Positions 2,093 through 64,000 of a stretch of 64,000 nucleotides of DNA are shown here, one piece after another. The translations under genes and the position numbers were made by a program. Location of the stretch: the NCBI RefSeq assembly GCF_055900595.2, contig NZ_CM148325.1. One strand, given 5' to 3'. How positions within the stretch are numbered: the stretch's first letter is position 1; the number at the start of each line of letters is the position of its first letter. The notes beneath the pieces were generated by a model. It had not been told where the DNA came from, did not search any database, and was given only the letters and a program-made list of their open reading frames with translations.

Positions 2093-2944
2093 TTAACCCG
2101 CGTAAGCTGCCAGCATTTCCTGCGCCGCCAGTTTACCCAACGCATTCGCTGAGAAAGGACTGTCGCCGGTGAGAAGTTTACGGTCCTTATGTACTCGCCC
2201 GGTGATGTCGTCATTAATGATGTTCATGCCCATTTTCTTCAGTTCTTCGCCGAAGTACCAGTTGAGATGACCCGGCATATAGCCTATCTCTGGCGTTTGT
2301 TTGTCAGCGGCGTCTGGGAATGCACAAATGGAATAACCATTCAGTGGGTTATCGCCGTGGCGAAGCGCCAGAAAAGCCGCCGGGCCGTGGCAAAGGGAGA
2401 TAACAAAACGGTCATTTTTGATTGCCCACTGTAAAGCAGCAGCCACGTCCTGGCTTTCTGGTAAACCAATAAGTGCGCCATGACCACCAGGAACAAAGAT
2501 TGCTGCATATTCGCTATCAGCGTTGAGGCTGGCGACAACATCCGCGAGTTTCTTCGGATTGCGGAACAACGATTTATGCTGCTCAAAGAATGGCATTACT
2601 TTTTCATCTTTGTGCGGCATAGCCCAGTATTCAAACTTGGTCATCAGACCGGAAATGGTCGCCACTTCGAATTCGAAACCTGCAGCATGGAGATGATACA
2701 ACGGCAGCAACGTTTCAATCGGATGGTTACCAGTCGAGAACAGTTTTCCGTTATCGGTCGGCAAATAACGTTCGTCCGCGGCGATCACCAGAATTTTATG
2801 CTTACCGCGATACGGTTTTGGATAGTCCACGCCATCAAGATCAGAGACGGGACTGGTATATTGGCTAAGCGAATATTCTGAAGGGAAGAATGCATTATCT
2901 TCAGCAATATCGACCTGCGGATTTTTACTTGTTTGAACAGTCAT
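2093..2944 (-). CDS. hchA: Hsp31 glyoxalase III / chaperone
   Basis: 283-aa ORF, DJ-1/PfpI family, translation matches HchA; ATG at 2944. Confidence 0.93.
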   Translation of the reverse strand: MTVQTSKNPQVDIAEDNAFFPSEYSLSQYTSPVSDLDGVDYPKPYRGKHKILVIAADERYLPTDNGKLFSTGNHPIETLLPLYHLHAAGFEFEVATISGLMTKFEYWAMPHKDEKVMPFFEQHKSLFRNPKKLADVVASLNADSEYAAIFVPGGHGALIGLPESQDVAAALQWAIKNDRFVISLCHGPAAFLALRHGDNPLNGYSICAFPDAADKQTPEIGYMPGHLNWYFGEELKKMGMNIINDDITGRVHKDRKLLTGDSPFSANALGKLAAQEMLAAYAG

Positions 2945-3307: not shown

Positions 3308-3316
3308 TGTTACGGG
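3308..3316. repeat. Left copy of the 9-bp IS1 target-site duplication (TGTTACGGG)
   Basis: The identical 9-mer directly flanks both IS1 ends. Confidence 0.85.
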
Positions 3317-3371
3317 GGTGATGCTGCCAACTTACTGATTTAGTGTATGATGGTGTTTTTGAGGTGCTCCA

Positions 3372-3647
3372 GTGGCTTCTGTTTCTATCAGCTGTCCCTC
3401 CTGTTCAGCTACTGACGGGGTGGTGCGTAACGGCAAAAGCACCGCCGGACATCAGCGCTATCTCTGCTCTCACTGCCGTAAAACATGGCAACTGCAGTTC
3501 ACTTACACCGCTTCTCAACCCGGTACGCACCAGAAAATCATTGATATGGCCATGAATGGCGTTGGATGCCGGGCAACTGCCCGCATTATGGGCGTTGGCC
3601 TCAACACGATTTTACGTCACTTAAAAAACTCAGGCCGCAGTCGGTAA
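3372..3647 (+). CDS. insA: IS1 protein InsA
   Basis: 91-aa [24 protein letters not shown]..., Zn-finger/HTH InsA. Confidence 0.95.
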
Positions 3648-4069
3648 CCTCGCGCATACAGCCGGGCAGTGACGTCATCGTCTGCGCGGAAATGGACGAA
3701 CAGTGGGGCTATGTCGGGGCTAAATCGCGCCAGCGCTGGCTGTTTTACGCGTATGACAGGCTCCGGAAGACGGTTGTTGCGCACGTATTCGGTGAACGCA
3801 CTATGGCGACGCTGGGGCGTCTTATGAGCCTGCTGTCACCCTTTGACGTGGTGATATGGATGACGGATGGCTGGCCGCTGTATGAATCCCGCCTGAAGGG
3901 AAAGCTGCACGTAATCAGCAAGCGATATACGCAGCGAATTGAGCGGCATAACCTGAATCTGAGGCAGCACCTGGCACGGCTGGGACGGAAGTCGCTGTCG
4001 TTCTCAAAATCGGTGGAGCTGCATGACAAAGTCATCGGGCATTATCTGAACATAAAACACTATCAATAA
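3566..4069 (+). CDS. insB: IS1 InsB (transposase made as an InsAB' fusion by -1 frameshift)
   Basis: 167-aa ORF overlapping the insA 3' end in the -1 frame, the standard IS1 arrangement. Confidence 0.9.
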
Positions 4070-4084
4070 GTTGGAGTCATTACC

Positions 4085-4093
4085 TGTTACGGG
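4085..4093. repeat. Right copy of the 9-bp IS1 target-site duplication (TGTTACGGG)
   Basis: Identical to 3308..3316. Confidence 0.85.
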
Positions 4094-4313: not shown

Positions 4314-5429
4314 TTAGAACTGGTAGACGATACCAACTGCAAACTGGTCATCAGCTGCTGCGCCAGTAATGGCGGCGTCATCTTTATCCAGCATGTTGAA
4401 TTTGTATGCAGTATAAACGTTCATGTTCTTATTAAAGTAGTACCAGGTACCAACTTCAATGTAGTTCACACGGTCAGCGTCAACATATCTATGTCCAGGT
4501 ACCCCTTTGATATCTTTACCTTTAGAGTACACATAACCTAAGGACGGACGCAGACCAAAGTCGAATTGATACTGAACAACCGCTTCAAAGTTCTGGGTTT
4601 CATTGATAAGTTGATCACGCATTATTGTATTGCCTTCTCGATCGGCAACACCTGTATCAATAGAACCCGGAGTCATATTACGAGTTTCGCCGTACATTAC
4701 AGCTGCGTAGACATTGTTCGCGTCATACTTTGCAGCCAACGACCACAGTTCAGCATTTGAACCGTTTCCATCGGCAACTTGATCGTTGGTGCGATCAGAT
4801 TTGCTATATGCACCAACGATACCAAAACCATTGATGTTATAGTCTACAGACAACGCATAGCCGTCACCATTTTGTTTCTTAGTGCTACGGTTGCTGTTTT
4901 TGCCTTGGTACTGAATCGCAAAATCAAGACCATCAACCAGGCCAAAGAAATCATAGTTACGGTAGGTTGCAACACCGTTGGTACGACCATTCATGAAGTT
5001 GTCAGCGGAAGCCCAGGAATCGCCACCCCATTCAACTAACATATCGGTATAAGCTGCGGCATCATAAGCAACACCGTAGTTACGGCCATAGTCAAATGAT
5101 CCTAACTCGTTATATTTCAAACCGGCGAAGGTTAAACGGGTTTTTTCCTGGTTTTCACCTTCGGGCTTGCTGGCGTCGAGGTTGTATTCAAACTGACCAA
5201 AACCAGTCAGTTCGCTGGTGATTTGGGTTTCACCTTTAACACCGAAACGAGCATAGGAGGTATCTTCGTTTTCGCTGTTATTATCATCAGTATTTGACCA
5301 GATGCGTTCGCCAACCATCTTGCCGTAGAAATCAACTTTATTGCCATCTTTATTATAAATTTCAGCCGCATTTGCTGCGCCAGCAACTAATAACGCCGGG
5401 ACCAGCATTGCCAGAACTTTTCTTTTCAT
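4314..5429 (-). CDS. yedS: Outer-membrane general porin, OmpC/NmpC family, apparently intact
   Basis: Track ORF 4314..5459; start trimmed to [21 protein letters not shown] signal peptide; C-terminal ...GIVYQF beta-barrel signature. Confidence 0.8.
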
Positions 5430-5976
5430 TATGTATTCCCTTGTGATTATAATCTTCATGAATATATCAATAAGTGCCGTTATCCAAAAAAAAGCACATT
5501 TGGATACTATTCTATGAAGTTCATTTTATTTTAAGGATTACATGTAACAAATGTATTTAAAAGATTTCAAAATGTTTCTAATCTATTTAATATAATTCGG
5601 GATTATGAATTCTGAATATAAACATTCATGAATATTATAAATGCATATCAATAAGTTATGAGTTGAGCAGAAAGATAGGGGGTATCAATGATTGTTGCGC
5701 TAAACACCTGGTGTGATCACGCGCACATTAATGAAGGAATAAAAAAAGCCGGCATCATGCCGGCCCCAAAAATATAAACAAGACGATAAAAGGCTAATAA
5801 CGTAAGCATCATGACACAGAATAATAAAAAGGTATAATTGTAATCAGTGCTAATATATTGATTAAATGAATTAATAAAGCCGATATCAAAGATAAATAAA
5901 ATCGCTCAAAACGATTTTTCCTGTATTCACTGCCGTTGCGCAAAAATTATCTATTTGTTCAAAAAATGAGTGAGTC

Positions 5977-14053: not shown

Positions 14054-14332
14054 TTACCAGGATGATTCTCAAAACAGCACAAATAATCAAAGATGATTTT
14101 TTCGGGAGCGATCCCGTTGACGCCAGAGCCACCAAGGGGTGACGCACGTCACATTTCTATTCATAAGTAGCGTTAATCATTCATATCGCGAATATTTTCT
14201 TGTCAGCGAAAAAAATTGCGGATAAGGTGATGAACACATCAGATTTCCTGGTGTAACGAATTTTTTAAGTGCTTCTTGCTTAAGCAAGTTTCATCCCGAC
14301 CCCCTCAGGGTCGGGATTTTTTTATTGTGCAT

Positions 14333-49980: not shown

Positions 49981-50056
<76 letters not shown>

Positions 50057-50110
50057 GTTTAAAAGACATCGGCCTCAAGCGGATGTCTGGCTGAAAGGCC
50101 TGAAGAATTT

Positions 50111-50184
50111 GGCGCGTTAACAAAGCGGTTATGTAGCGGATTGCAAATCCGTCTAGTCCGGTTCGACTCCGGAACGCGCCTCCA
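50111..50184 (+). tRNA. cysT: tRNA-Cys (anticodon GCA)
   Basis: 74-nt GGCGCGTTAACAAAGCGG...GGTTCGACTCCGGAACGCGCCTCCA. Confidence 0.93.
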
Positions 50185-50196
50185 CTTTCTTCCCGA

Positions 50197-50283
50197 GCCC
50201 GGATGGTGGAATCGGTAGACACAAGGGATTTAAAATCCCTCGGCGTTCGCGCTGTGCGGGTTCAAGTCCCGCTCCGGGTACCA
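50197..50283 (+). tRNA. leuZ: tRNA-Leu (anticodon TAA), long variable arm
   Basis: 87-nt GCCCGGATGGTGGAATCGGTAGACAC...GGTTCAAGTCCCGCTCCGGGTACCA. Confidence 0.93.
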
Positions 50284-58554: not shown

Positions 58555-61910
<3,356 letters not shown>

Positions 61911-61916
61911 GAGCGG

Positions 61917-62345
61917 TTAATCACCCGTAAGTGGAACTAACAGCACATCGACCTCACTTGAGGCAATCACTCTTTTCGCCGAGCAGGATGCTCGCGAAAA
62001 GAAACTGTGATTGTGATTACCGCAAATCACCAAATCGAAATGATGTTTGTGACATACTTCCAGAATATGTTCGCTTAACTCACCGTAGGCAATAAACGTC
62101 TTGTCAACGGGATACCCCGCATCCTGAATTAACTTATCAAGAAAGCTTTGCGTTTCTTCTTGCATCACGCTGCGTAAATCTTCAAGCATCGGCGCGGCTA
62201 ATTGATTGTACATTTCCGGGTCGGAAGCGAGAGTAATTAAACTGATGTGTCCCTTTACTGGCCTGGCGATAGATACCGCTTTTGCCAGCAGTTGCTGACT
62301 TTCCGGTGTAACCGCAACAGCGACAAGAATATTGCTATAGCTCAT
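61917..62345 (-). CDS. uspC: Universal stress protein C
   Basis: 142-aa UspA-family ORF. Confidence 0.88.
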   Translation of the reverse strand: MSYSNILVAVAVTPESQQLLAKAVSIARPVKGHISLITLASDPEMYNQLAAPMLEDLRSVMQEETQSFLDKLIQDAGYPVDKTFIAYGELSEHILEVCHKHHFDLVICGNHNHSFFSRASCSAKRVIASSEVDVLLVPLTGD

Positions 62346-63124
62346 AACCTGTTCCTTATTCTGTGAACTTCAGGTGACATTAAAGCTTTACTCCTAATGG
62401 AGAAACGACGCAATCCCAACTCGGTCAAACAGGTAAATATTAGTCTGATTATTAGTAAAGACAATTAATCAATCACTCCCGGTGATCATATAATTTCAAA
62501 TGTAATTATAAGAAAATAGTGTACTGATTCTCCGCATTAAACAAGTGGTTAATATATGTAAAACATTTCATTTAACATTATGTTGATTGTTGCCTTTCTT
62601 TGTATTTAATTAGTTTGTTGTGCGGTAAGTGTCTGTTTAAAAATAGCTTATCTGGTATTGCATGAAAGTGATTATTTATAGCAGATGATTATTTACGGTG
62701 AGTTATTTTAACTGTGCGCAACATCCCATTTCGATTATTCCTGTTTCATTTTTGCTTGCTAGCGTAGCGAAAAACTTTTTAACAGATTGAAATACACCCA
62801 AAACAAAAGTATGACTTATACATTTATGTTAAGTAATTGAGTGTTTTGTGTGATCTGCATCACACATTATTGAAAATCGCAGCCCCCCTCCGTTGTATGT
62901 GCGTGTAGTGACGAGTACAGTTGCGTCGATTTAGGAAAAATCTTAGATAAGTGTAAAGACCCCCTTCTATTTGTAAGGACTTATTAAACCAAAAAGGTGG
63001 CTCTGCTTATTGCAGCTTATCGCAACTATTCTAATGCTAATTATTTTTACCGGGGCTTCCCGGCGACATCACAGGGTGCGGTGAAACCGCATAAAAATAA
63101 AGTTGGTTATTCTGGGTGGGAATA
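62346..63124 (+). promoter_or_regulatory. flhDC promoter and long 5'-UTR regulatory region, with no IS insertion
   Basis: About 780-bp AT-rich intergenic region upstream of flhD and divergent from uspC; no long ORF; no IS terminal sequences seen. Confidence 0.6.
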
Positions 63125-63475
63125 ATGCATACCTCCGAGTTGCTGAAACACATTTATGACATCAACTTGTCATATTTACTACTTGCACAGCGTCTGATTG
63201 TTCAGGACAAAGCGTCCGCTATGTTTCGTCTCGGCATAAATGAAGAAATGGCGACAACATTAGCGGCACTGACTCTTCCGCAAATGGTTAAGCTGGCAGA
63301 AACCAATCAGCTGGTTTGTCACTTCCGTTTTGACAGCCACCAGACGATTACTCAGTTGACGCAAGATTCCCGCGTTGACGATCTCCAGCAAATTCATACC
63401 GGCATCATGCTCTCAACACGCTTGCTGAATGATGTTAATCAGCCTGAAGAAGCGCTGCGCAAGAAAAGGGCCTGA
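63125..63475 (+). CDS. flhD: Flagellar master regulator subunit FlhD
   Basis: Start trimmed to [22 protein letters not shown]. Confidence 0.93.
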
Positions 63476-63477
63476 TC

Positions 63478-64000
63478 ATGAGTGAAAAAAGCATTGTTCA
63501 GGAAGCGCGGGATATTCAGCTGGCAATGGAATTGATCACCCTGGGCGCTCGTTTGCAGATGCTGGAAAGCGAAACACAGTTAAGTCGCGGACGCCTGATA
63601 AAACTTTATAAAGAACTGCGCGGAAGCCCACCGCCGAAAGGCATGCTGCCATTCTCAACCGACTGGTTTATGACCTGGGAACAAAACGTTCATGCTTCGA
63701 TGTTCTGTAATGCATGGCAGTTTTTACTGAAAACCGGTTTGTGTAATGGCGTCGATGCGGTGATCAAAGCCTACCGTTTATACCTTGAACAGTGCCCACA
63801 AGCAGAAGAAGGACCACTGCTGGCATTAACTCGTGCCTGGACATTGGTGCGGTTTGTTGAAAGTGGATTACTGCAACTTTCCAGCTGCAACTGCTGCGGC
63901 GGCAATTTTATTACCCACGCTCACCAGCCTGTTGGCAGCTTTGCCTGCAGCTTATGTCAACCGCCATCCAGGGCAGTAAAAAGACGTAAACTTTCCCAGA
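63478..64000 (+). CDS. flhC: Flagellar master regulator subunit FlhC, 3'-truncated by window edge
   Basis: ATG 2 nt after the flhD stop; hand translation [31 protein letters not shown]... with the Cys-rich Zn site CNCCGG; open to the window end, so absent from the ORF track. Confidence 0.88.

Follow-up and report, generated by a model that had tools for sequence, protein, structure and literature searches.

An uninterrupted uspC-flhDC intergenic region in a non-K-12 Escherichia coli genome

The DNA analysed here, referred to as the window, is a stretch of 64,000 nt from contig NZ_CM148325.1 (NCBI RefSeq assembly GCF_055900595.2). At the 3' end of the window the genes are arranged in the order araH-otsB-otsA, uspC, flhD and flhC. 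The araH-otsB-otsA segment ends with otsA (60477-61910, plus strand) and is followed on the minus strand by uspC (61917-62345), a 142-aa ORF for universal stress protein C and the divergent neighbour of flhD. The flhD gene (63125-63475, plus strand) is intact, and its 116-aa product is identical to the FlhD of K-12 and of ATCC 8739. The 5' part of flhC (63478-64000, plus strand) is cut by the end of the window, its first 174 aa being identical to K-12 FlhC. UspC differs from its K-12 counterpart at one residue, number 62, which is Q in the window and H in K-12. These gene assignments agree with the RefSeq annotation at the orthologous loci of ATCC 8739, YJ6 and MG1655.

With the start codon of uspC at 62345 on the minus strand and the ATG of flhD at 63125, positions 62346-63124 make up the entire uspC-flhD intergenic region. 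An earlier note on this DNA, made from the sequence alone, had put the region upstream of flhD at roughly 780 bp; its exact length is 779 nt, and the coordinates given in that note run exactly from one start codon to the other, excluding both. The region is AT-rich (GC 0.28-0.42, compared to ~0.5 in the flanking genes). No Rfam family was matched inside it; elsewhere in the window, Rfam matches at gathering score were obtained for rseX (5741-5830, minus strand), DsrA (14233-14319, plus strand) and three adjacent tRNAs (49981-50280, plus strand). A 40-aa ORF at 62342-62464 (minus strand), for which no match was found in Pfam, occupies a position equivalent to that of a 38-aa hypothetical ORF in Salmonella (NZ_CP022016.1, locus positions 696-812), which lies within the spacer directly upstream of the uspC start and overlaps it.

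The transcription start site of K-12 flhD was taken as position 1978395, the AsflhD boundary in NC_000913.3 and PMC9600491, and this position maps to 62928 in the window. The mapping is cross-validated by two insertion targets, since it places TTAA at -99 to -96 and the IS1 target at -107 to -100, as published. By identity to K-12, the sigma-70 core promoter was assigned to 62893-62921 on the plus strand, with a -35 hexamer TTGTAT (62893-62898), a 17-nt spacer and a -10 hexamer TACAGT (62916-62921). Aligned to K-12, the window is identical from -63 to +35. The hexamers match their consensus weakly, too weakly for the flhD promoter to be reported by a consensus promoter scan, which returned one match, on the minus strand at 62734-62705, where 3.5 were expected by chance. 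A promoter too weak for such a scan fits dependence on an activator. Upstream, at 62849-62864 and centred at -71.5, lies TGTGATCTGCATCACA, in which both core half-sites equal the consensus and which we take to be the CRP site. The CRP site of the flhDC promoter was reportedly described by Soutourina et al. in 1999. The putative core in the window is a perfect TGTGA-N6-TCACA, whereas K-12 has TCACG in the second half-site. A 39-nt context with the window allele was matched in 4485 genomes (4176 exactly), making it the majority allele by sequence; the corresponding K-12 39-mer was matched in 415 (405 exactly), mostly K-12 laboratory derivatives.

By homology with K-12, the flhDC 5' leader would extend over 197 nt (62928-63124, plus strand) and precede the intact flhD, in keeping with the long 5'-UTR that had been proposed for this locus. 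It is one T shorter than the leader of K-12, presumably 198 nt as judged from the AsflhD coordinates, and the missing T belongs to a run ending at 63043. In total the leader differs from that of K-12 by five substitutions and one indel. Two of these differences, C at +36 and T at +54, are common to all seven non-K-12 genomes of the multiple alignment described below, and the other four are polymorphic among them.

Insertion sequences were sought in and around the region by several methods. IS1, IS2, IS3, IS5, IS30, IS186, IS911 fragments and ISX were taken from MG1655 as queries and compared to positions 61900-63500 by blastn-short (word size 7, E up to 50). These eight K-12 IS types gave chance-level matches only, of 7-14 nt, the best being 13 nt from the interior of IS30 (E = 0.024), located in the flhD coding sequence. 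A degenerate IS1 inverted-repeat pattern allowing up to three mismatches found nothing in 62346-63124; its only matches in the window, at 3317-3339 and 4062-4084, belong to a genuine IS1. A pattern for IS5 ends had no match anywhere in the window. A collection of 72,556 plasmids, in which IS elements abound, was searched by BLAST at word size 11 and gave no mobile-element match to the region; 13 records were hit, all by the orthologous locus, and these records hold chromosomal DNA of E. coli or Salmonella that has been misfiled. There were no direct repeats of 12 nt or longer in 61900-63500, and the sole internal repeat was a 12-nt inverted pair, 62076-62087 (in uspC) and 62694-62705, separated by 606 nt and judged to be a chance match. 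The region contains ten ORFs of 20-42 aa, the longest of 40-42 aa, and a Pfam scan of these ten found no transposase family, with one sub-threshold match to a non-transposase family (E = 0.058). The claim that IS terminal repeats and transposase ORFs are missing upstream of flhD was thus upheld by BLAST, end patterns, plasmid search and Pfam alike, and by the same four methods a cryptic IS remnant was rejected as a candidate feature of the region.

For a finding of absence, a comparison to chance expectation is inapplicable, and the relevant control is whether an IS can be detected elsewhere in the same window. A complete IS1 was found at 3317-4084, 99.7% identical to IS1H of MG1655 and with the insA/insB ORFs, so the tests used are able to reveal an IS. 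The element sits between hchA (2093-2944, minus strand) and a porin gene (4314-5459, minus strand) and is flanked by a 9-bp target duplication, TGTTACGGG (3308-3316 and 4085-4093). For an 8-kb query that includes this element, the median number of places per genome was 10, and 15,013 places were found in plasmids. At least one IS1 that looks intact is thus present in this genome, at a distance of 59 kb from the unoccupied flhDC hot spot.

The 779-nt region was also used as a megablast query against 5426 complete E. coli genomes, and 5421 of them were matched, with a median of one place per genome, a maximum of two, and two places in plasmids. In 5271 genomes a single place spanned at least 80% of the query. 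When 60 genomes were sampled evenly down the match ranking, the match was in one piece of 777-780 nt in 55; it was truncated in two and split by an IS1 (~1555 nt) in three, two of which are K-12-like at 98.6% identity. A multiple alignment was made of the window, ATCC 8739, YJ6, MG1655 with its IS1 removed, an ST131 strain, an O145:H28 strain, a soil isolate and a dog isolate. These eight genomes are colinear over 781 columns, of which 45 are variable, indels being of single bases only, and the orthologous region measures 778-780 nt in the seven genomes other than the window. The 779 nt between divergent uspC and flhD are thus colinear with a species-wide spacer of about that length. They show no IS or remnant, the target sites used by IS1 and IS5 in K-12 are intact, and an intact flhD lies downstream. 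We conclude that 62346-63124 is almost certainly the regulatory region between uspC and flhDC in its standard E. coli form, free of IS elements. The earlier description of this arrangement as native is borne out by the species-standard layout, by the identity to K-12 around the start site and by the length of the leader. An uninterrupted region upstream of flhDC is known biology, and nothing in it is novel.

Side observations were made on related sequences. HM037272.1, a PLSDB record labelled as a plasmid of Bacillus thuringiensis CT-43, contains 491 nt (68388-68877) with 99% identity to the uspC-flhD upstream region of E. coli; the match stops near the IS hot spot, and the stretch looks like contaminating E. 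coli DNA, probably from K-12. In the urine isolate E05 (NZ_CM143908.1, locus L013, 3001-5400), the region is reduced to its first 221 nt, followed by IS1 and then a truncated tar, and flhDC, motAB, cheAW and part of tar are lost. In this isolate IS1 is associated with a loss of motility genes, the reverse of what the activating insertions bring about in K-12.

In K-12, IS insertions between about -96 and -476 are reported to raise flhDC expression and motility, and IS5 has been placed at -99 to -96, at -252 and at other sites, according to the accounts of the primary work given in PMC5100188, PMC5493358, PMC9600491 and bioRxiv 10.1101/840991. For IS1, an upstream distance of 106 bp from the flhDC start site has been published for K-12, RP437 and MG1655. 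The IS-activated flhDC alleles are named for K-12 MG1655, W3110 and MC1000. The statement that some K-12 stocks carry IS1 or IS5 here and are more motile for it agrees with this literature and with the MG1655 reference sequence itself. Relative to the window, NC_000913.3 has 776 extra bp at 62821-62828, made up of the 768-bp IS1H and an 8-bp duplication of its target CATTTATG. This is the motility-raising allele of the literature; the window shares its flanks and promoter-proximal region but is without both the element and the duplication. No IS1, IS5 or IS3 lies between uspC and the flhD promoter of the window, where the spacer is 779 nt compared to 1555 nt in MG1655. The target duplications expected of such alleles (8-9 bp for IS1, 4 bp for IS5) are likewise absent: CATTTATG (62821-62828, -107 to -100), identified by alignment to MG1655, and TTAA (62829-62832, -99 to -96), the IS5 hot-spot target identified by sequence and the mapped start site, are each single and unoccupied at 62821-62832.

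IS-free K-12 regions, such as those of BW25113 and of poorly motile MG1655 stocks, share with the window the gene order, the IS target sites, FlhD and the promoter-proximal sequence, and with IS1 and its duplication removed the K-12 region is 779 nt long, as in the window. Apart from IS1H with its duplication and 1-nt indels, the window is colinear with the K-12 upstream region, an alignment that the earlier note had proposed as a check. The two are 98.6% identical, differing by ten substitutions and two single-base indels, namely one T fewer in the leader of the window and one private extra T at -357. Five alleles were confined to K-12 among the eight aligned genomes: T at -466, G at -218, G at -64 (in the CRP core), A at +36 and A at +54. 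The allele of wild isolates (ATCC 8739, YJ6, AMSCJX02 and many others) is 99.9% identical to the window over the region, and ATCC 8739 has every difference of the window from K-12 except the extra T. Over the last 24 kb, the window is ~100% identical to the wild isolates AMSCJX02, TUM9803 and YJ6. Given these identities, 98.6% to K-12 as against ~100% to wild isolates, the possibility that the window is a K-12 genome was rejected, and K-12 serves here only as a yardstick. The otsA-uspC-flhDC order is kept in Salmonella enterica, with a spacer of 795 nt, which makes a long spacer the ancestral condition. Between the CRP site and the start codon (window 62846-63122), the Salmonella sequence aligns at ~70%; its distal 500 nt gave no alignment at the sensitivity used.

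The extra T of the window lies in a run of three (62569-62571, about -357 from the flhD start site; TTT instead of TT), as identified from the alignments. A 41-mer containing it occurred in none of the 5426 complete E. coli genomes, and a control 40-mer without it occurred in 2795 of them. The extra base is either a variant private to this sequence, in which case it could be a regulatory one, or an error in sequencing a homopolymer.

The region might be uninterrupted and still carry the scar of an earlier insertion, a solo terminal repeat or the leftover target duplication of an excised element, that alters its regulation. BLAST could miss a remnant of less than about 13 nt, or one left by an IS family other than those queried. 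In the alignment with diverse genomes, each of the 779 nt has its place in the orthologous region, with length differences of single bases only. The absence of long direct repeats from 61900-63500 and of IS1 and IS5 end patterns from the region, the single copies of CATTTATG and TTAA at the hot spot, and the occurrence of the locus in single copy over 5426 genomes and its near absence from 72,556 plasmids all argue against a scar, which we consider extremely improbable.

A different question is whether an uninterrupted region behaves in this strain as it does in K-12, where the IS-free promoter is poorly expressed. In the literature, IS-free strains are either poorly or highly motile, and fast, flagellar motility is seen in uropathogenic (UPEC) strains from phylogroups B2, D and A in which no insertion is present. 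An uninterrupted region is therefore no predictor of the motility phenotype. Because the window departs from K-12 by ten substitutions and two indels, including the final CRP-core base and the T at -357, the output of its promoter could differ quantitatively from that of K-12. It is possible, though not the reading we would favour, that the strain expresses flhDC well and is motile with no IS present, owing either to sequence variants (the perfect CRP core, the leader polymorphisms, the extra T) or to a trans-acting background. The motile IS-free UPEC strains are consistent with this, as are the origin of the window in a wild-type, non-K-12 lineage and its TCACA half-site, in place of the TCACG that is a minority allele found mostly in K-12 laboratory derivatives. 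Against it, the window and K-12 have one and the same core promoter (-63 to +35), and the CRP difference falls on the outermost core base, at which a change may have a small effect. That the window promoter is functionally unlike the IS-free promoter of K-12, as the minority TCACG set against TCACA in ~4200 genomes might suggest, seems to us improbable.

The standard, IS-free reading of the region brings with it a regulatory scheme transferred from K-12 by homology. Judging from that homology and from the literature, transcription would begin at 62928 from the weak sigma-70 promoter (TTGTAT-17-TACAGT), and by analogy to K-12 its activation would depend on CRP-cAMP at -71.5. Repressors acting across the AT-rich upstream DNA (H-NS, LrhA, OmpR, RcsAB, Fur, IHF, MatA and YjjQ) would hold the promoter down. 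The literature assigns regulation through the leader to CsrA, to the small RNAs McaS, ArcZ, OmrA/B and OxyS, and to the antisense RNA AsflhD with RNase III, and the 197-nt leader of the window would be a target of the same protein, small RNAs and antisense RNA. The earlier characterization of the promoter as tightly regulated is likewise an extrapolation from K-12. In stocks of K-12, the repression is relieved and motility rises when an IS enters upstream of about -96; the window has no such insertion.

In itself the finding has little significance beyond strain bookkeeping: flhDC stands behind its standard regulatory region. The hot spots at which IS elements insert in K-12 remain available as targets in this genome, and, were motility selected for, the intact IS1 found elsewhere in it could provide an activating insertion. 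The comparison also indicates that the MG1655 reference is unsafe as the wild type for this locus, as it carries both IS1H and a minority allele of the CRP site. If TCACG weakens activation by CRP, this would help to explain both the frequent fixation in K-12 stocks of IS insertions by which motility is regained and the existence of motile wild strains in which the region is uninterrupted.
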